DNA of 64,000 bases from an uncultured bacterium (GTDB taxonomy: Bacteria > Babelota > Babeliae > Babelales > Babelaceae). A program made the position numbers and the translations under genes. The notes below the pieces were generated by a model that made no database searches, was not told where the DNA came from, and saw only the letters and a program-made list of their open reading frames with translations. How positions within the stretch are numbered: the stretch's first letter is position 1; every line of letters starts with the position of its first letter. The DNA lies in contig CAWKFG010000004.1 of NCBI GenBank assembly GCA_963848965.1, forward strand, positions 448,001 through 512,000. The letters run 5' to 3'. This document shows, one piece after another, positions 1-60,204 of the stretch.

Positions 1-2
1 GA

Positions 3-734
3 AGCTATCCCAAAGTTTATGCAGAGGATCTTTCTCCTGAAAAAATATATGCTAATTATATCCGAACCTACATAGAAAGAGACGTTCGTCAAATTAAAAA
101 TATTACAGATCTTACTCTCTTTCAACGCTTTGTTCAATCATGCGCAGGAAGGACTGGGCAGACACTTAATCTTTCATCATTAGGTAATGATGTGGGAATA
201 GATCATAAAACAGCACGTGCTTGGCTTTCTGTACTTGAGGCTACCTATATTGTTTTTTTGCTCTACCCTTACTATAAGAATTATGGAAAACGCCTTATTA
301 AAGCACCTAAACTTTATTTTGTAGATACAGGGATCGCCTGCTCACTTTTAAATATCAGGTCTCCAGAGGTTATAATTGAACACTACATGAGAGGTCATCT
401 CATTGAGTCTTTTATCATTTCAGATTTATTTAAGCAATACTATAACCTCGATCAAAGGCCATCCTTATATTTTTGGAAAAACCATCAAGGTAATGAAATC
501 GATTGTATTATAGAGGAAGCCTTATACACAATCCTCATTGAAATTAAAGCAGGTAAAACTATCGCTAGTGATTTTTTCACAGGATTTGGTTATTGGAAAA
601 ATATAACGAAATCTCCTTCACGTAATTTTGTTATCTATGGCGGTTCAGAAAACCAAAACTGGCCCGAAGCAAAAGTAATAAGCTGGCAATCGTCCGGCAG
701 CCTGATCAAGAACATTAATAAGGGGCAATTTTGA
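3..734 (+). CDS. AAA+ ATPase with DUF4143 / PD-(D/E)xK C-terminus (5' partial)
   Basis: Frame is open from position 3 (SYPKVY...TYIERDVRQ...CAGRTGQ); KAPKLYFVDTG and EIDC..EIK motifs. Confidence 0.85.
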   Translation, partial: SYPKVYAEDLSPEKIYANYIRTYIERDVRQIKNITDLTLFQRFVQSCAGRTGQTLNLSSLGNDVGIDHKTARAWLSVLEATYIVFLLYPYYKNYGKRLIKAPKLYFVDTGIACSLLNIRSPEVIIEHYMRGHLIESFIISDLFKQYYNLDQRPSLYFWKNHQGNEIDCIIEEALYTILIEIKAGKTIASDFFTGFGYWKNITKSPSRNFVIYGGSENQNWPEAKVISWQSSGSLIKNINKGQF

Positions 735-812: not shown

Positions 813-895
813 TTCTAAAGAAATTTACTGTCCCCTGCTATGCATATTTCGGAACCGAGAACTTGAATTTGAGGTTGATCTTAAAGATATCAAAC
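813..895 (+). repeat. Island boundary repeat, copy 1 (att-like)
   Basis: ttctaaagaa..tgtcccctgcta..tttcggaacc..ttgaatttga..cttaaagatatcaaac; aligns with 2959-2985+4144-4200 and 5538-5620. Confidence 0.85.
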
Positions 896-966
896 ACTAT
901 TTTACACTATAAAGCTCAGCAACTGCTTGCTATGTTTCTAGACAGTTAATCTTGCACTTTTGGTTA

Positions 967-1791
967 CTACTTCCCACCAGATATCTCTTTCCTAGATTTC
1001 CAAGGTTTTCCTGGTAGTAGGCTTACCAATTGCTCACTAACCATTTGGAATGCCTCATTTGAAGACCATATTGATTGATCAGCAATCAAATGTACTATAT
1101 CATTTTGAAAATCAGGATTTTGTTGTTTTTCAAATAAGTTCTTTTCAAACTCCGCGCGAGTAATTGATAGCCCTTCATTACCGCAATACTTTTTAAAGAT
1201 ACTTATTACAGCTTCACAATCAATTAACTCTTTTTTCAAGACAAACCATATATCATAAAGATCTCTTCCTTTACTTCTTTGATATAATGCTCTTAACTTT
1301 GTTCCAATAAGTTCATTAAGCTGGTAAGTTTTAATAGCTGACTTACCAGAAAACCATGTGCTCGCTATAGCAAACTCATAATCTATTAAATCATAAACAC
1401 TAAAATGTTCTGTTGTGTTTATTTCGATTTTTAGTTTGCGCTGTATATTATCGATAGAGCTATATTGATAGGTTAACTTAGCACTTCTGTTAGTAAGTTT
1501 GCCCTTAGGCTGCCCCAACCAAGACAAAGCGGTACGGATCTCGAGAATAAGCGGCCCTATAGGTTGAGAGGTAATTTGAACAAGATCAATATCCTCACTA
1601 TAACGCAATGGAGGCTTAAAAAATAACTTATTAAGAGCTGTTCCTCCTCTAAAAACTAAATTTTCCCTAATTTTTTCACGCTCATATAAGTTTATTAACG
1701 CTCGACTGATAATTAAATCCTGCTCTACTTGATAATCAGCTATCCATGGTACATGCTGTCGCCATTCTGATAAGTAAAAAGTTTCAATCAT
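967..1791 (-). CDS. abiEii: AbiEii/AbiGii nucleotidyltransferase toxin (type IV TA)
   Basis: QVEQDL, FRGGTAL.K, RYSEDIDL, K.RAL.QR.KGRDLYD motifs. Confidence 0.9.
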   Translation of the reverse strand: MIETFYLSEWRQHVPWIADYQVEQDLIISRALINLYEREKIRENLVFRGGTALNKLFFKPPLRYSEDIDLVQITSQPIGPLILEIRTALSWLGQPKGKLTNRSAKLTYQYSSIDNIQRKLKIEINTTEHFSVYDLIDYEFAIASTWFSGKSAIKTYQLNELIGTKLRALYQRSKGRDLYDIWFVLKKELIDCEAVISIFKKYCGNEGLSITRAEFEKNLFEKQQNPDFQNDIVHLIADQSIWSSNEAFQMVSEQLVSLLPGKPWKSRKEISGGK

Positions 1792-2582
1792 ATATCACCT
1801 TCTAGCTTGGTGTTTTCAATGATTTTCCAAGTTTCATTTCTTTTTGCTTTACTGAGTTTTGCCTTAAGGCCAGTATGAAGCATCACATAATTAACTCTTG
1901 GTTGTTTTGACAAGTGCTCTTTTATTACGCTTGCCAGGTTTTTTGCTCCAATAAATTCCAAAATATAACCTAGGCGTTGTTTCCAAGGAGTTCCAGGTAG
2001 GTTCTCTATAACTGATTTTAGCCCTTCCTCGGTCATGCTTTCTTTAAGCTCAGCAAGAATTGTGGTTATATTGTTTAAGCCACCACTTTGTTTTACAAAT
2101 TTAATAAGATCTACTGCTGTAGCTTCTGGACTTGAAACCCTAAGTTTACTCTTCAGCGTAGAGAACCAAGTAACAGGAACCTTTTCAATCTCTTGGTTCT
2201 TGATAAAGTTAATTTTAACCTTACCGCAAACTACAGAGCGCAATTTCTTTTCAGTAACTACTTGAAAAACCTGAGGAGCTTGATGTGATGCTCCGTAATA
2301 GCTAGCGGCTGTAATTAAACCTGCATAGTACTTATACCCTAAGTATTCCATTAAATAGGGAATAAACTGATCAGCGGGAATACACTCAAGAATCTTATAT
2401 TCCGGTGGTATTATCACGTAAAACCCTTTTACTGGACTAACGATTTCTCCTTTACCAATAAGGCGAGAAATGGCATGAAGTATAGCATTCCTAGATTTAT
2501 TGAGCTCTTTATAAGCACTATTTATAGTAAAGTAGCATCTACCATAGGCAACTTGCTTGTTTAAATATTCCTTAATCTTCAT
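1788..2582 (-). CDS. abiEi: AbiEi antitoxin / transcriptional regulator
   Basis: N-terminal wHTH, YYAGLITAASYYGA.HQ.PQ, VSSPEATAVDL; 4-bp overlap with the toxin; start placed at MKIKEY (uncertain). Confidence 0.85.
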   Translation of the reverse strand: MKIKEYLNKQVAYGRCYFTINSAYKELNKSRNAILHAISRLIGKGEIVSPVKGFYVIIPPEYKILECIPADQFIPYLMEYLGYKYYAGLITAASYYGASHQAPQVFQVVTEKKLRSVVCGKVKINFIKNQEIEKVPVTWFSTLKSKLRVSSPEATAVDLIKFVKQSGGLNNITTILAELKESMTEEGLKSVIENLPGTPWKQRLGYILEFIGAKNLASVIKEHLSKQPRVNYVMLHTGLKAKLSKAKRNETWKIIENTKLEGDI

Positions 2583-2603
2583 AATTAACAAATTCATTTT
2601 AAT

Positions 2604-2680
2604 AAAATGCCTAAAATCGGCATTTTGTGCAAACAAAAACGAAGCTAATACTATAATACTTTATGGGCTAAATTTGTCAA
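2604..2680 (-). promoter_or_regulatory. abiE promoter and inverted-repeat operator
   Basis: Minus-strand TTGACA-16-TATTAT (2680-2653); inverted repeat aaaatgcc..ggcatttt at 2604-2626. Confidence 0.5.
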
Positions 2681-2958
2681 AAAATACTCAAAAGTACGCG
2701 TTCCTTAACCCTCTTAGGAGAAAATAAGTAGCTTTTGCTGAATGATTTAAGAACCGAAAATTTTATCTTTGCAACGTCGAAGAAATAATAATTTTAACAA
2801 GCCAGATCTTACATTACCTAGATGTTCATGAAAAAAGCAATTTTACAAAATATCAGCACTTTAGCAATAAAGCTTCATATTTAATAAATATGCATTAAAG
2901 CGCTTCACGAAGACCTTATACTATAATTATATAGTGAATTACATTGAACTGATCTAGT

Positions 2959-2985
2959 TTCTAAAGAAGGTTGGTGTCCCCTGCT
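2959..2985 (+). repeat. Island boundary repeat, copy 2 left half (interrupted by IS110)
   Basis: ttctaaagaaggttggtgtcccctgct; continues at 4144. Confidence 0.85.
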
Positions 2986-2999
2986 TGTATATTGAAATT

Positions 3000-3158
3000 A
3001 TGTTCCTAAATTTGAGACGTTAAGTTTAGGAAAGCTAGCAGGAGCCTGTTCCCCTGCCTGGTTTTTAAAACCGAGTGTCAACTTAGGACCTGCTAGCATA
3101 TATAGTACAGCTCGAACAATCGAGTGGGACAAGGATCCCGTATACAAAACCGAGGCAC
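3000..3158 (+). ncRNA. IS110 bridge RNA
   Basis: 5' hairpin (ttcctaaa/tttaggaa); loop closed by gctagcagg/cctgctagc containing tcccctgc (target match); second loop containing acaatcg and tatacaa (donor matches); ends approximate. Confidence 0.8.
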
Positions 3159-3161
3159 TAT

Positions 3162-4106
3162 ATGAATACTATATCACATATTTTTGTCGGCATCGATATC
3201 TCTAAAAAATTTTTAGATATTCACTTACATCCTGTGGCTAAAGACTTTAGAGTTGCTAACTCACAAGCTGGAATCAATAAACTCATTCAAGTACTTTCTG
3301 CTTATACTGTCGTACAGATCGTTTTTGAGTCTTCTGGTGGTTACGATTTCCTTCTCAAGCAAGAACTTAGCATTAATAATTATAATGCTTGGCAAGTTCA
3401 GCCTAGACGCATTAGAGCCTTCATCATCTCTGAAGGCATTAAGGCTAAAACTGATAAAATTGATGCTCAAATGATTGCTCTCTTTGCTTCTCAAAAACGG
3501 CCTAAATATCATGAGATTATTCGTTCTCAAGACGAGCTAAAGCTCTGTGCTCTCGTCAAATTCAGGACTAACATTGTCCGAAACATTGTTCAAGAAACCA
3601 ATAAATTGCAGCATCCTCAACAAGTTTACTGTAAAAATTTTCTTGAAGCTCATATCTCCTTTATGGAAAGACAGTTACAGGAAGTTGAACAAGAAATTGA
3701 ACAGCTGATCCAAGACAATGAATCTCTTAATAAAAAATGCCATATTATTGAGTCTATGCCTGGTATCGGCAAAGTCACTGCCTGCTCTTTGCTTGCAGAA
3801 ATGCCTGAGCTTGGCAAAGTCGGTAATAAGCAAATAGCCGCTATTCTAGGTGTAGCACCTTTTATTAAGCAAAGTGGTGGATCTAAAGGCACTGCATCAA
3901 TTAGCGGTGGTAGACAAGCTACCCGTGATATCCTTTATATGGCTACATTAGCAGTTATCAGATTTAATCCTGCACTTAAATGCTTTTATAAACGGCTACG
4001 CACTGTTGGTAAAAAAGCTAAAGTTGCTCTCATTGCTGTTATGCGAAAGGTTATTGGTATTTTAAATGTTATGGTTCGAAAAGGAGAACAATGGCAAACT
4101 ACTTAA
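3162..4106 (+). CDS. IS110 family transposase/recombinase (DEDD RuvC + Transposase_20)
   Basis: VGIDISK, FESSGGY, KTDKIDA, SMPGIG, GVAP...QSGG motifs. Confidence 0.95.
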   Translation: MNTISHIFVGIDISKKFLDIHLHPVAKDFRVANSQAGINKLIQVLSAYTVVQIVFESSGGYDFLLKQELSINNYNAWQVQPRRIRAFIISEGIKAKTDKIDAQMIALFASQKRPKYHEIIRSQDELKLCALVKFRTNIVRNIVQETNKLQHPQQVYCKNFLEAHISFMERQLQEVEQEIEQLIQDNESLNKKCHIIESMPGIGKVTACSLLAEMPELGKVGNKQIAAILGVAPFIKQSGGSKGTASISGGRQATRDILYMATLAVIRFNPALKCFYKRLRTVGKKAKVALIAVMRKVIGILNVMVRKGEQWQTT

Positions 4107-4143
4107 AATAATTTTTAAACTTGTTGACTTTTAACACAATCGT

Positions 4144-4200
4144 TTACATGTTTCGGAACCGGAAGCTCATTTTTGAATTTGATCTTAAAGATATTCAATC
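4144..4200 (+). repeat. Island boundary repeat, copy 2 right half
   Basis: ttacatgtttcggaaccggaagctc..tttgaatttgatcttaaagatatt. Confidence 0.85.
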
Positions 4201-4318
4201 AATCATTGCTTCATACAATTTTAGCTTATATTGAAAACTTATATAATAAGCTTTCGATGGTTTACTTCTTCTAGGTATCAGCATTAGAAGGATAAAAAAG
4301 GTAAAACTTCTAGGGATT

Positions 4319-5305
4319 TTACTCTTTTGCGCCATATTTTTTAAGTAACTCTACTATATCTGAATGACCTTTTTCTGTAGCAAGCATTAAAGCAGTTTCG
4401 CCAAACCTATTTCGTACATTAACTTCAGCACCTTTAGCTAAGAGCATTTGAACTATATCTTTATGGCCACCTCGTGTAGCATGCATTAAAACAGTACTTG
4501 TATACAGATCTTTAGCATTAACATCAGCACCAGCCTTAATCAGAAGTTCTACTACCTCTTTATGACCATTTCTTGCAGCGTCCATTAAAGCGGTAAATCC
4601 CACAATATTATCTCGAGCGTTAATATCAGCACCAGCTTGTATAAGCATTTCTACTATTTCTTTATAGCCTTTCACTGCGGGCCTCTTTAAAGCACTATAA
4701 TTATCTTTAGTTTTAACGCCAATGTTAGCATCAGCCCCTTTCTCTAGAAGCAACGCTACAATTTCTCTATAGCCGTTTTGTGCAGCATAATACAAGGCAG
4801 TGCAGCCAAACATTTCCTCTTGAGTATCAATATCACTAATACCTTTACTTAAAATATCTCTTACTTTTTCAATATTTCCCTTTCCAGACGCTTCAATAAG
4901 CCTTAAAGCATTAGGATGTAGCTCTAGCAATTTTTGTGCACTTTGAACTCCACGATTTTCAAGGTCTTTTAGTATCCAATTGGGTTTATATTGTCGAGCA
5001 TACGCTTTTCGTTTTAACTCATTGAGAAGGAATCTCACAAGATCTACATTATCAAATAAGGCTTTATAGTTTTCATTCCTTGCCAATTCTTCTATTTTCT
5101 TAAGAGCTTCAGAAAATGTTTTTGATGACTCTAGAGTTTCTTTGATACTACACTCTAAAGCCTCTCTGATTTTATTATATACTACAAAATGGTTCAGCTC
5201 TTTCCTCAGCTCTTGCGGCAAGTATTCTAGATAACTCTTTTGCTTTTGCATCCCAAGACCAGACGTAAAAAATCCTAACAATAAGATAACTATTACCTTT
5301 TTCAT
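4319..5305 (-). CDS. Secreted ankyrin-repeat protein
   Basis: Signal peptide MKKVIVILLL..GMQ; about 6 TALxxAA..GH ankyrin repeats. Confidence 0.9.
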   Translation of the reverse strand: MKKVIVILLLGFFTSGLGMQKQKSYLEYLPQELRKELNHFVVYNKIREALECSIKETLESSKTFSEALKKIEELARNENYKALFDNVDLVRFLLNELKRKAYARQYKPNWILKDLENRGVQSAQKLLELHPNALRLIEASGKGNIEKVRDILSKGISDIDTQEEMFGCTALYYAAQNGYREIVALLLEKGADANIGVKTKDNYSALKRPAVKGYKEIVEMLIQAGADINARDNIVGFTALMDAARNGHKEVVELLIKAGADVNAKDLYTSTVLMHATRGGHKDIVQMLLAKGAEVNVRNRFGETALMLATEKGHSDIVELLKKYGAKE

Positions 5306-5537
5306 GCTTAATTTTCTTTCCAATATTTTTACTGTTATGATTTTATTATAGTTCATAAAGGCACAAGATTCAACTAGCAATTAACTTCTAATGTTAAAAA
5401 GAATAAAACCTTATGCGTTCTAGTTGATTTTAAGAAACAAGCTAGATAAAGGATCTTTCATTAAGCATACGATACAAAATACTCAAATTAGTGATCTTTG
5501 ATGTAAGCCTATGCTAGAAATGTTTTTCTATTCAAGG

Positions 5538-5620
5538 TTCTAAAGAATATTGGTGTCCCCTGCTATACATGTTTCTGAACCAAAAGCTTGAATTTGAGAC
5601 CTGTTTAGATGATATCAAAC
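5538..5620 (+). repeat. Island boundary repeat, copy 3
   Basis: ttctaaagaatattggtgtcccctgctatacatgtttctgaacc..ttgaatttga..gatatcaaac. Confidence 0.85.
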
Positions 5621-5663
5621 AGTTTTATCTAGCCTTCAACATTTAGTAAAGTAATTTTTAATA

Positions 5664-6239
5664 TCAAGATCTAGCAAAAGCTAGTAACTTTGAATAATCA
5701 CCTTTGTCTGCATATTGTAATGCTTCAATATATAGTTTCCTAACAGGAGACGAGTTATATAAACTTTGATTTAAACCCCAACTAAAGCGATCATAACCTT
5801 GTTGTGTTATGAGCACATCAGCCATTAATCGAGCATGCCTTCCATTACCGTTAGGAAAGGGATGAATCCATACCAATTTATAATGAAGTCTGATTGCTAT
5901 CTCTTCTTTAGAGAAGGACTCATGTAGCAATTGGTAACTAACGTCATCACACAATTTTCTAACTTCCACAGGAATCAAATACCAACTAATACCAAGGTTT
6001 TTCTCAGTCTTACGAAACTTGCCTGCCCACTTCCATGTTTGATTAAACATATGCTTATGCAGCTGCTGTATAAATTCAACAGATAAAATACCATGTTGTT
6101 TAAATGCCCATTGTTGAGCCTTGAGAATATTTTTTTCTTCCCAAGCATTCAACTCTTCCTGAGTAGTAATATGTACAGGTAGTAAATCAGCTAACTCGCC
6201 AGGATCAATTGGTGTCGCACCCTCAGGATAATTAAACAT
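5664..6239 (-). CDS. Mobile mystery protein B (Fic domain)
   Basis: GATPID, HPFPNGNGRHAR Fic motif, WKWAGKFR. Confidence 0.9.
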   Translation of the reverse strand: MFNYPEGATPIDPGELADLLPVHITTQEELNAWEEKNILKAQQWAFKQHGILSVEFIQQLHKHMFNQTWKWAGKFRKTEKNLGISWYLIPVEVRKLCDDVSYQLLHESFSKEEIAIRLHYKLVWIHPFPNGNGRHARLMADVLITQQGYDRFSWGLNQSLYNSSPVRKLYIEALQYADKGDYSKLLAFARS

Positions 6240-6705
6240 GACCTTTATCCCATAAGTTTCTTGGGTTACCTTGTAACAGCTCTTCAACTAAAGCATCTTC
6301 CTGTTGCTTTAATTGCTTTGGATTTAAACTTTGCTGTTCCAATCCCATTGAATGATTTATTAATTTTATCTGTTTTTGCGCTACAGTTCTAGCTTGATCT
6401 TCAAGTATCTGATCGAGTGGCTTTAAAGGCACAAGGCAATAAACCAGCTTACAGTTCATAGCAGCTGCAGCCTGTTCAAGAGTCTTTAAGTTAATAGTTC
6501 CTTTTTGTTCACTCTGTTCCATAGCAATAATGTTAGACTGGCTACATCCAACCTTTTGAGATAAGGCGTAACTTGAAAGTCCTAATGATTCACGTATAGC
6601 CCGTATCCATCCCTTTTTAGGAGGTGGCTTTTTAGTGAGTTCTAAAAACTTACTTGTAGTCTCTTGAAGTTGCTCTCGCATTAACTTTCTAAAGATATTT
6701 GTCAT
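6232..6705 (-). CDS. Mobile mystery protein A (XRE HTH)
   Basis: P.KGWIRAIRESLG, HTH, HSMGLEQQ, PRNLW; overlaps the Fic gene. Confidence 0.9.
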   Translation of the reverse strand: MTNIFRKLMREQLQETTSKFLELTKKPPPKKGWIRAIRESLGLSSYALSQKVGCSQSNIIAMEQSEQKGTINLKTLEQAAAAMNCKLVYCLVPLKPLDQILEDQARTVAQKQIKLINHSMGLEQQSLNPKQLKQQEDALVEELLQGNPRNLWDKGHV

Positions 6706-6961
6706 ACATAATAACCTATAATTTATCAAATCATCTAAAATTAATCAATTATAGCTTATCAAAATTGGATAAAAAAATCAATTAAAATTGATTAAAATTT
6801 CGTCGAAACTATACTAAGGATACGTAGTAAAGCACTATATTCTTGTAAGAGTGACAAATTTACTTAGAGATTAACTTGAAAGTACTTAGTTGTAGATATA
6901 GCACGATATGTCAAACTAAGTTAAACTATTATTGTATAATAATTCTTCGTTTTAATGTGAA

Positions 6962-7816
6962 TTGATAGGCATGAACTATAAAAATAAAAGTATGATCAAA
7001 TATGGTGCAATTGGTATCATAATCATATTAGTTGGAGTATGGTTATTTACTTATTTGGCAGCCCCTATAAAAACTATACATTCTTTTAATGAAATTAACT
7101 TTAATAAAATAAAGCCTGGCACACTCGTAATTTTTGATGTCGATGAGACGCTTATCCAACCTCTAGATAGCTATTATATAAATGAACATACGCCTCAAGC
7201 CCACGAATTTAGAAAAAAGTTATTTATGAAGCACCCAGAAATTAAAAATTGGGATATCTATGCCGATATTACTCTTAAGGAAGTAAAGCGGCCATTAATT
7301 GAGCCAATGGTTATTTCCAAAATAAAAGAATTAGAAGGGAAAGGAGTCTATGTTATTGCCTGTACCGCTATGAATACAGGCAAATTTGGAACTTTAGAAA
7401 GACTGGAAGCATGGCGCTATGAACATCTTGCATCATTAGGATTTCAAGGACATTTTGGAGATTTAATTATAGACTTATCTTTAGAAAATCGAAAGCCTGT
7501 ATTTTATAAAGGAATCTTGGCAACTGATTTATTAACTAAAGGACTAGTAGTTTTCGCTTTTCTCGATCACATTCACCTTATACCCAAAGAAATTGTTATG
7601 GTTGATGATAGCATAGAATTTTTAGAATCAATGCTCCAAGAATGCAAAAAAAGAAATATCTCTTATCAAGGATATTTGTATCAAGGAGCTCGTCAAAAAT
7701 TTTGGGATAAAAAGTTAATTGAGTTTCAGTCAGAGTATCTTATTAAACATAAGAAATGGTTAAGTGATAATGAAGCTCGAGCAATTTTAGCAAAGTCGTC
7801 TCAATCAATGCTTTAA
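6962..7816 (+). CDS. DUF2608 HAD-like hydrolase with N-terminal membrane anchor
   Basis: VIFDVDETL, FYKGIL, MVDD motifs; N-terminal hydrophobic helix. Confidence 0.75.
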   Translation: MIGMNYKNKSMIKYGAIGIIIILVGVWLFTYLAAPIKTIHSFNEINFNKIKPGTLVIFDVDETLIQPLDSYYINEHTPQAHEFRKKLFMKHPEIKNWDIYADITLKEVKRPLIEPMVISKIKELEGKGVYVIACTAMNTGKFGTLERLEAWRYEHLASLGFQGHFGDLIIDLSLENRKPVFYKGILATDLLTKGLVVFAFLDHIHLIPKEIVMVDDSIEFLESMLQECKKRNISYQGYLYQGARQKFWDKKLIEFQSEYLIKHKKWLSDNEARAILAKSSQSML

Positions 7817-7878
7817 TTAGGGACTTTTATACATTCCAATAACTAATATAATTATACAATCGCGATTCTAAACGAAGC

Positions 7879-7955
7879 TGGTGTGCCCGGTAGGATTCGA
7901 ACCTACGACCTACGGATTAGAAATCCGTTGCTCTATCCAGCTGAGCTACGGGCAC
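7879..7955 (-). tRNA. tRNA-Arg(TCT)
   Basis: Reverse complement folds as a cloverleaf; anticodon stem ACGGA/TCCGT with loop TTTCTAA; GGTTCGAATCC T-arm; encoded CCA. Confidence 0.97.
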
Positions 7956-59511: not shown

Positions 59512-60204
59512 TTTTAGCCTTTTCTTTAATTTATTTGATCTAATTCTTAACACAACATTCTGTTTTTTAAGAATTTAAAGTTAATTCAATGCATTTCTTG
59601 CTATAGAGATAAGTATTTCAAACTTATAGGTTTGAACTATAACTCCTTCTCTAGTCCTTACTTTGCTGTATACGATAGACCATCATAATTATAGATAGTT
59701 AAGGCCCTTTTAGATTCTTAATCTGGCACTTTAGGCCTTTTAAGAATTTATTCTAGACCAAACTCTATCATTTCTGTCCACTGTCTTTATGCACTAGTCC
59801 CTTTAGTGATCATAATTTTTGCATCTACTAATCGTTCTGATAGATGCTAAAGACGTCTATAGGCAGAGGTATAATTGTGATAGTCAATAGAGATTACTTA
59901 GTTGATGTGTTTAGGAACGATCAAATAAAATTTGAGAGAGCCTTCAAGACATGAAGATAGTTTTTTCAACTAGCTTACGATTAACCTAAGAATAAAGAAC
60001 ATTCTTTAAAGTATACATAATTAAGTATACACCTATTTTATATAAAAGCAACGAAATAAAAGCCACGTTAGTATTATTATCACTAACAGCTTCGAGGACA
60101 TAAGACCGCTCTAAAGTATAAATGTGGAAAAAACCTTACTCTTGCATTAAGGTAATCCTGATATTTATGCTATTCTATGAACCATTTTTCTAAGGAGTGC
60201 GTGT

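Follow-up and report, generated by a model that had tools for sequence, protein, structure and literature searches.

A series of recombinase-less gene cassettes bounded by probable attL-type sites of a tRNA-targeting large serine recombinase family in a Babelaceae genome

The DNA analyzed here (the window) is a stretch of 64,000 nucleotides (nt) from an uncultured bacterium of the Babelaceae (Babelota), corresponding to positions 448001 to 512000 of contig CAWKFG010000004.1 (C4) in assembly GCA_963848965.1 (G000 in our numbering), a 1.73-Mb genome with a completeness of 88.7%. Its first 8 kb contain three repeats of about 85 bp, one of them split by an IS110-family insertion sequence (IS), followed by a transfer RNA gene, tRNA-Arg(TCT), with short units of cargo genes in between (Table 1). 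A preliminary description of this DNA, made from the letters alone, had proposed that the repeats are attP-like attachment sites lying in the 3′ end of a recombinase gene and rebuilt by tandem integration at the tRNA. The analysis presented here indicates that they are probably attL-type sites of a large serine recombinase (LSR) family that targets the CCA end of tRNA genes and is widespread in Dependentiae, and that these sites bound nine cassettes, each without a recombinase.

All three repeats were recovered in the same orientation and at the positions first proposed, and the copies starting at 813 and 5538 are 77% identical over 90 nt. The peptides quoted for them were correct, the reading frame is open in the translated copies, and the likeness of the left arm to the tRNA junction proved real (23 nt, 67 to 88%). 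A DNA profile made from seven copies found seven copies in the genome at E values of 1e-20 to 1e-25, and because these values were obtained against the whole 1.73-Mb sequence, a chance origin of the likeness is excluded. Further copies had been anticipated upstream of the window, and six were present on the same strand, at C4:435216, 437006, 439122, 440454, about 443495 (degenerate), and 447247. The complete series consists of nine same-strand sites plus the junction at the 3′ end of tRNA-Arg(TCT) and spans 20.7 kb. The left arm starts at the same base in every inner site, overall likeness among copies is 70 to 88%, and identical runs of about 31 nt recur in several copies.

The nine cassettes measure 1.3 to 3.8 kb and hold one to four genes each, in both orientations. 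The first cassettes encode a histidine phosphatase with a HicB-like helix-turn-helix (HTH) protein and a tRNA-binding-domain protein with a ParE-like pair, and further cargo upstream of the window includes an AAA_14/DUF4143 ATPase, a DUF6829 protein, and a YhcG/DUF1016 nuclease interrupted by a group II intron. The intron (L001:16552-18780, or G000 C4:444552-446780) contains an open reading frame (ORF) for a reverse transcriptase/maturase (L001:16984-18657) and a domain V match (L001:18698-18776). At its left end, the array begins with a truncated YhcG unit that is paralogous to the complete one (85% identity over 497 bp), so the original outer end of the array has been lost. When the left flank was compared for synteny in search of an empty site, just ankyrin-repeat noise matched. 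The expectation that the cassettes carry neither a recombinase nor a remnant of one agreed with searches of the array, where the best tblastn match had an E value of 1.5 and a C-terminal recombinase profile, thin at 8 of 120 homologues, gave values above 1. Genome-wide searches for tyrosine (PF00589) and serine (PF00239) recombinases matched only contig C1, leaving the IS110 enzyme as the sole recombinase of the window and no match of either family on C4.

Table 1. Features of the window that belong to the cassette series or to the neighboring tail-bearing series.
Feature	Position	Strand	Support
AAA_14/DUF4143 ATPase, 3′ part (second DUF4143 in the array); cassette begins upstream after site C4:447247	1-734	+	Pfam DUF4143 E 4e-50
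Site g, putative attL-type: short flank-type arm, degenerate last-six tRNA bases, element-side half-site, recombinase tail coding	813-895	+	Profile E 1.8e-24
AbiEii toxin and AbiEi antitoxin	967-2636	-	Pfam AbiEii E 5e-35, AbiEi_1 E 4e-39
Site h, left part: arm, TGGTGT, and first half-site bases	2959-2985	+	
IS110-family insertion sequence, 1159 bp, inside site h	2986-4144	+	Pfam DEDD_Tnp_IS110, Transposase_20
Site h, right part: half-site and tail	4145-4200	+	Profile E 9e-9
Ankyrin-repeat protein, N-terminal hydrophobic segment	4319-5380	-	Pfam Ank families E 1e-43 to 6e-45
Site i, putative attL-type	5538-5620	+	Profile E 1e-24
Fic/Doc-family protein and overlapping HTH_3 protein, toxin-antitoxin-like pair	5664-6729	-	Pfam Fic E 4e-15, HTH_3 E 5e-7
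DUF2608 (HAD-like) gene, same last cassette as Fic/HTH_3	6962-7816	+	Pfam DUF2608 E 9e-26
tRNA junction, putative attB-like, about 38 bp: left arm of the type and spacing of the internal sites; right arm the antisense of CCA end, acceptor, and T arm; T-loop as outer motif	7865-7903	+	
tRNA-Arg(TCT), intact	7879-7955	-	ARAGORN; Rfam tRNA 76.3 bits
Degenerate tail copy, outermost of a second series ending at tRNA-Glu(TTC) 12 kb past the window end	59844-59951	+	E 1e-4

The peptide encoded by the repeats is the C-terminal tail of an LSR gene, as had been suspected. A narrow first profile, searched against this genome and 40 relatives, matched short open frames only, and the intact form came from a large protein database alone. 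There, one of 120 homologues (P0059, 516 residues) continues past a conserved Trp into a tail that matches the repeats exactly from that Trp on (residues 483 to 508), with an E value of 2.7e-12 for a broad profile and 3e-4 for a profile made from this genome's array alone. P0059 is the kind of protein that the preliminary description had called for, an intact recombinase ending in the repeat peptide. At least five other homologues, and some metagenome copies, bear a different tail that is similar among them. Source labels of the homologues read Babeliales, Dependentiae, or TM6.

Two relatives hold the recombinase and the tail in other arrangements. In G001, the last part of contig C23 and the recombinase 3′ end on contig C18 are identical over 77 nt, after which C23 enters the tail and C18 enters tRNA-Glu; the C23 sequence is an uncut attP-type junction, derived from either a circle or a tandem copy, and accompanies the integrated junction on C18. 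One site of G019 retains a 23-codon stub of the recombinase fused to the tail.

The sole serine recombinase of the genome under study, P0001 (486 residues, C1:377109-378569), has the domains Resolvase (PF00239), Recombinase (PF07508), and Zn_ribbon_recom (PF13408). Its gene shares its last 15 nt with the 3′ end of tRNA-Arg(TCG), which is encoded on the other strand, and the protein terminates three residues past the Trp, whose codon, TGG, is the antisense of the tRNA CCA. The same overlap of Trp codon and CCA, with tRNA-Asp, Glu, Gln, or Arg, was present at 11 of 11 orthologue loci in relatives (L028 to L038, 57 to 72% identity). Among metagenome loci, distant homologues of about 30% identity included, 24 of 51 had the overlap, and many of the others were cut by contig ends. 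Consistent lengths were found in the database set, where 77 of 120 homologues are 484 to 486 residues long and end one to three residues after the Trp; some of the remainder read through the antisense of the tRNA. Assignment of P0001 to the XisF or Ccr group was rejected, as its NCBIfam scores lie far under the cut-offs: the best model, XisF, gave 113 bits (cut-off 375), and CcrB, CcrA, and CcrC gave 78, 75, and 38 bits (cut-offs 700 to 900, with 900 for CcrB).

Two sets of observations bear on the wider history of these recombinases. The tRNA-Arg(TCG) series holds a fragment of a Rep3-type plasmid initiator (Rep3_C, E 9e-15; L023:13002-13658, or G000 C1:383002-383658), which hints that the parent element may replicate as a plasmid when free. 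Two more distant recombinases, at L129 (contig name indicating a gut metagenome) and L130 (without such a label), are about 30% identical to the family, and their gene ends overlap tRNA-Gln by roughly 56 to 60 nt; tRNA targeting may be older and wider than Dependentiae.

Comparison of the repeats with the tRNA junctions and with the recombinase genes resolves each repeat into four parts: a 14- to 16-nt arm resembling the downstream flank of the tRNA, the terminal six bases of tRNA-Arg(TCT), a longer half-site of the element type, and the orphan tail. The junction at tRNA-Arg(TCT) is symmetric over about 38 bp, with its center at positions 5 and 6 of TGGTGT, and looks like an unoccupied attB-like site in which the T-loop would serve as a half-site. 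With position +1 set at the T of TGG, a GTTC-type outer motif starts 17 nt before TGG in the recombinase-gene arms (11 of 11 loci) and 14 nt before it in the arms of the window sites and in the tRNA-Arg(TCT) junction. The right-side counterpart of this motif reaches to +24 in the tRNA, of which it is the T-loop, and to +30 in the tails. For serine integrases, the excerpted text of PMC3783163 describes attB half-sites that are shorter than those of attP, with a shift of the outer motif of about 5 bp. The dyad-like sites compared here have this kind of spacing, with a left shift of 3 nt rather than 5.

Because the internal arms are of the tRNA-flank type and place the motif at -14, like the tRNA junction, rather than at -17, as in the recombinase gene, we read the internal sites as attL-type hybrids composed of a host-type arm, the crossover, an element-type half-site, and the tail. 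The earlier label of attP-like sites did not hold, since their left arm is the shorter flank-type arm and not the recombinase-gene arm. Two other parts of that proposal stood, namely the linkage of the sites to tRNA 3′ ends and a crossover in TGGTGT or immediately past it. All four site types were seen, as attR (11 of 11 loci), attL (the internal sites), attP type (G001), and attB-like (tRNA-Arg(TCT), Glu, and Asp), and they share one exchange breakpoint, located in the six bases next to the arm or directly past them. Those six bases match the anchoring tRNA in 6 of 9 sites of this array, in two of three of the tRNA-Glu series, in the single tRNA-Asp site, and in 5 of 7 in relative G027; the six exact matches in this array also keep an open tail frame.

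In the other series of this genome, the left arm is a hairpin-bearing flank that also lies downstream of tRNA-Glu and tRNA-Asp, and a flank of this type follows tRNA-Arg(TCT) in 8 of the 22 loci read in relatives. A two-part hairpin, its first strand including the tRNA's own CCA, is conserved downstream of many different tRNAs in several genera (for example, at loci L059 to L081 in relatives and at G000 C4:523826-523965 and C4:219782-219921). This hairpin may be a terminator, a processing signal, or a sequence spread among tRNA loci by elements.

A six-frame profile search found 18 tail-bearing sites in the genome: the nine of this array, three in a series at tRNA-Glu(TTC), one 2.9 kb from tRNA-Asp, three on C1, and two on C2. 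Sixteen of the 18 fall into four same-strand series, each pointing at a tRNA 3′ end. The three C1 sites lie upstream of P0001 on the strand of the gene, two of them split by other IS110 copies, and wherever a series holds the recombinase, the recombinase is the tRNA-proximal unit. Relative G027, of a different family, has 6 to 7 sites spaced 0.7 to 0.85 kb apart in which nearly every unit is a toxin-antitoxin pair; its LSR and tRNA-Asp lie 13 kb beyond. Across the phylum, the tail profile matched 105 of 261 genomes (69 of 145 genera), with the most matches, 15, in the genome studied here, and the recombinase family occurred in 92 of 261. None of the best 150 tail matches lies in an open frame longer than 192 codons, which makes them orphan tails.

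Several other features were noted near these series. In the tRNA-Glu series, two paralogous 80-residue ORFs, GIY-YIG-like by eye (L026:9231-9473 and L026:11571-11813, or G000 C4:521231-521473 and 523571-523813), each lie immediately before a flank with a hairpin; a tail site follows one of these flanks and tRNA-Glu the other. The host-type arm duplicated in this series may be about 400 bp long and include a gene. A 362-residue ORF in the same series, TnpB/IS605 OrfB-like by eye, lies beside a MazF-like pair (L026:2753-3841, or G000 C4:514753-515841). Besides the Val-Asn-Asp tRNA cluster at C4:219922-220171, a second tRNA-Val(TAC)/tRNA-Asp(GTC) pair is present at C4:2989-3279 and could be a duplicated or element-borne tRNA set.

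The conservation of the repeats appears to have two components. An imperfect inverted repeat is formed by the recombinase-gene arm and the beginning of the tail, so that part of the conservation is that of the predicted binding site itself. Past the half-site, the tail is conserved as a peptide across genera. Differences among the array copies fall on codon positions in the ratio 101/101/158, favoring the third, and 69 of 239 codon differences are synonymous in the frame of the preliminary description versus 17 of 232 and 42 of 232 in the other frames, with pairs that are not independent. This third-position bias and synonymous excess indicate that the tails had evolved in a coding role within recombinase-bearing elements and were stranded afterwards. 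In the copies compared, the position of Met varies and a conserved start codon is absent.

Taken at sequence level, the gene ends and junctions establish that this LSR family integrates at the CCA end of tRNA genes and has its attachment site within its own last codons. The identity of the sites, their link to the LSR, their anchoring at tRNAs, and the freedom of the array from recombinase genes are direct observations. In the free element, the attachment site would lie inside the last 25 to 35 codons of the recombinase gene. Upon integration, the body of the gene would stay beside the tRNA, ending one to three codons after the Trp (the antisense CCA), and the tail with the element-side half-site would be carried to the far end of the insert. 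Cassettes would enter successively at the tRNA-proximal site, each entry regenerating the arm and six bases beside the tRNA and turning the previous junction into an inner site. On this basis, we consider it likely that the repeats are attL-type sites of the tRNA-CCA-targeting family and that they bound nine recombinase-less cassettes.

Several points weigh against that interpretation. By the account of PMC3783163, canonical serine integrases accept two site pairs only, attP with attB and, given a directionality factor, attL with attR. A stack of recombinase-less units between attL-type sites would need attL-type sites to pair with attB-type (or attL-type) sites, a combination unknown for this enzyme class. 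Under canonical tandem integration, a recombinase gene or stub would be left of every inner site, as in G019, and the array instead has short arms. Beside P0001, where the neighbors are a Gp49/HI1420 toxin-antitoxin pair, no directionality factor was recognized. The left-side shift of 3 nt, not 5, means that the attB-type label for the arms leans partly on their likeness to the tRNA flank. The two C2 sites lie on a contig with no tRNA, and some sites of the array are decaying, the copy at C4:437006 carrying a stop codon and a frameshift and the copy at about C4:443495 being half eroded. Some site pairs share 30 to 500 bp of extra similarity on the left, which fits duplication equally well. Lastly, the genome gave no observed case of recombination; the single public sequencing run that contains part of the region shares only 5% of the sampled words, and its contig joints rest on 30 to 59 nt of repeat at 85% likeness.

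An alternative is that the sites are decaying relics of past events. Composite recombinase-bearing elements would have integrated, the end module would have been excised via the nearest inner site, and the outer cassettes would now be fixed. Such an origin requires no noncanonical pairing for the excision itself and accounts for the copy with a stop and frameshift, the half-eroded copy, and the IS-split copy, as well as for the truncated YhcG cassette as a deletion scar. It also agrees with the tRNA-proximal position of the recombinase in every series that holds one and with the decay of the inner recombinase of G019 to its 23-codon stub. What it leaves unexplained is how nine units without a recombinase trace, all with identical short arms, were first built. 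The arms end at the same base in all copies, unlike the outcome of random decay, and the retention of both the exact six tRNA bases and an open tail frame in 6 of 9 sites also counts against it. We regard this origin as unlikely on balance, though it deserves to be taken seriously.

Homologous recombination would assign to the recombinase the first site only, with later DNA entering through a resident site by RecA-type Campbell insertion of site-bearing DNA, or with units duplicated by unequal crossing-over. The extent of conservation is what recommends it: the whole site, arm included, is conserved, and several copies share the identical runs of about 31 nt. Similarity also continues on the left for 497 bp at 85% between the copies called sites a and f and for 91 to 118 bp at 76 to 78% between others, and two nonadjacent sites of G027 share more than 46 nt on that side. 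At 70 to 88% likeness, however, the copies are poor substrates for such exchange, and the cargo differs wholly between units. The six crossover-adjacent bases, moreover, follow the anchoring tRNA in each series, as site-specific exchange predicts. On these grounds, homologous recombination seems quite improbable as the source of the array.

A still less probable explanation is that the repeats are dispersed regulatory elements resembling repetitive extragenic palindromic sequences, a small RNA or peptide gene, or a mere landing site for IS110 with no link to recombination. All three IS110 copies do lie inside members of the family, and a hairpin stands beside some copies elsewhere, but those hairpins are the ordinary flank downstream of tRNA genes. 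The attachment of the tail to a recombinase gene and the variable Met position of the peptide argue against this explanation, and at E values up to 1, Rfam gave no match to the repeats. At that threshold it reported the tRNA, two weak plastid-model matches opposite the tRNA strand, the group II intron, and nothing else. The possibility that the repeats are pseudo-tRNAs was rejected, as ARAGORN reports only the real tRNA.

A classical integron or a tyrosine-integrase tRNA island, with the repeats as attC sites or as direct repeats of the tRNA 3′ end, would fit the one-directional layout of small toxin-antitoxin cassettes beside a tRNA but is effectively refuted: eight single-strand folds (four copies, both strands) gave z scores of -2.3 to +1.35 with no common hairpin, the two tyrosine recombinases of this 88.7% complete genome match XerC and XerD best and reach 83 and 48 bits with the integron-integrase model against a cut-off of 265, only six tRNA bases are repeated where 15 nt or more would be expected, and no tyrosine integrase lies beside the tRNA.

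If the repeats are attL-type sites of the LSR family, movement of cassettes in trans is plausible; the direct hints of it are the attP-type junction of G001 and weak joints between contigs in one other metagenome. Whether the LSR at tRNA-Arg(TCG) on C1 still cuts and joins the sites of the array in trans is a narrower matter, which we consider possible while leaning somewhat against it. The public run contained related cassettes at 85 to 95% likeness and five joints whose sides, 22 to 59 nt, lie within repeated sequence, and these joints were not counted as evidence. One of them, from 6800 to 812, places sequence like site g directly after the Fic/HTH unit and is too weak to show rearrangement. 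A further, rather doubtful extension is that the system is a serine-recombinase counterpart of the integron in Dependentiae. The tRNA tip would be the entry site, the orphan tails would act as attC, and one LSR per genome would shuffle toxin-antitoxin, defense, and host-directed cassettes in trans via attL-attB or attL-attL pairing. Since every exchange would replace the tail, the enzyme could tell if the element it sits in is free or integrated.

The attachment sites appear to have become targets themselves. All three IS110 copies of the genome (the one in the window, C1:386021-387179, and C1:396671-397829) occupy an identical position, with identical orientation, in three different sites of the tail family, directly past the run of C that follows the tRNA-derived bases. 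A fourth, eroded IS110 3′ end adjoins tail-like sequence at C1:407856-407925. IS110/IS1111-type elements are known to land in integron cassette sites (PMC11187229, excerpted text), and by analogy with the IS1111-attC group, which targets attC, the IS110-family element seems to target recombinase attachment sites.

At the level of function, the array resembles an integron in its one-directional stack, its small, promoter-poor cassettes rich in toxin-antitoxin genes, its single entry point, and an enzyme that is encoded once. It differs from an integron (IntI, attI, attC) in enzyme class, site structure, and anchor, as well as in having genes of either orientation within its cassettes, and every defining feature tested was lacking.

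Other LSR systems also build stacks. In staphylococci, SCC and SCCmec islands (staphylococcal cassette chromosome, with CcrAB or CcrC) are LSR cassettes at the 3′ end of one gene, their joints encode a protein tail, and recombinase-less pseudo-SCC units occur in tandem and are moved in trans. The array shares with them the tandem units at a gene 3′ end, the tail-coding joints, and the recombinase-less units. The repeated tail of SCC is that of the target gene, rlmH, whereas here it is the recombinase's own and the target is a tRNA. Of the features of SCC- or ssrA-type stacks, the nine tandem recombinase-less units were found, and the Ccr lineage and a second small recombinase were not.

The closest published parallel, as far as the excerpted text of the source goes, is the set of Dehalococcoides ssrA islands (McMurdie et al. 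2011, PMC3146451), with which the array shares stacked LSR islands, a recombinase gene that overlaps the site, and module-less units. There, the LSR (DsiB/DsiA) inserts islands at the end of a tRNA-like gene, in the T-loop region; the islands form tandem stacks whose direct repeats have about 85 bp of extra conservation, and the recombinase 3′ end always overlaps the attachment site (PMC3146451). Fifteen such islands have no integration module and were proposed to be cis-mobilizable (PMC3146451). The Dehalococcoides target is a single transfer-messenger RNA gene, and the islands are large, with a six-gene module that includes a second small recombinase. Here, several tRNAs (Arg, Asp, Glu, Gln, Asn, and Leu) are used, the units are 0.7 to 3.8 kb, and there is one recombinase gene per genome. 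The overlapping codons were judged nonfunctional in that paper (PMC3146451), in contrast to the tail peptide conserved across genera in the present family.

Phage-type LSRs (A118/LI, Bxb1, and phiC31), in the excerpted account of PMC3783163, have the same domain set, dyad-like sites, a motif closer to the center in host half-sites, and hybrid attL and attR sites. Their targets are protein-coding or intergenic, whereas here the attachment site lies within the recombinase frame, a tRNA T-loop/acceptor half-site is used, and the attL-type series has no attR partners. An attachment site inside the gene, integration that cuts the gene, and tRNA targets also characterize the archaeal "suicidal" SSV-type tyrosine integrases, enzymes of a kind that a review describes as exclusive to archaea (PMC8371274, excerpted text). 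In those systems the gene is halved and both halves are dead, whereas the bacterial serine recombinase loses only a tail of 25 to 35 residues and keeps all recognized domains. Judged from titles and the openings of abstracts, no literature was found that pairs Dependentiae with a serine recombinase or treats this LSR family. Relative to the known stacks, what appears new is the use of several ordinary tRNA targets, the very small units, a single recombinase per genome, the conserved tail peptide, and the attL-type series.

Tyrosine integrases are the enzymes to which site-specific insertion at tRNA genes is normally attributed (Islander, abstract). In the present case, an entire clade of serine recombinases inserts there, apparently by reading the universal T-loop and CCA end, which would explain how tRNA-Arg, Asp, Glu, Gln, Asn, and Leu can all serve as targets among close relatives. 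If the enzyme does pair attL-type sites, it would break the strict pairing rule that underlies serine-integrase tools and, as a natural enzyme, would find its target already present in every genome. For obligate intracellular, protist-dwelling bacteria with small genomes, the stacks would constitute an integron-like store of toxin-antitoxin, defense, and host-directed genes, such as those for the ankyrin-repeat, Fic, DUF2608, and DUF6829 proteins.

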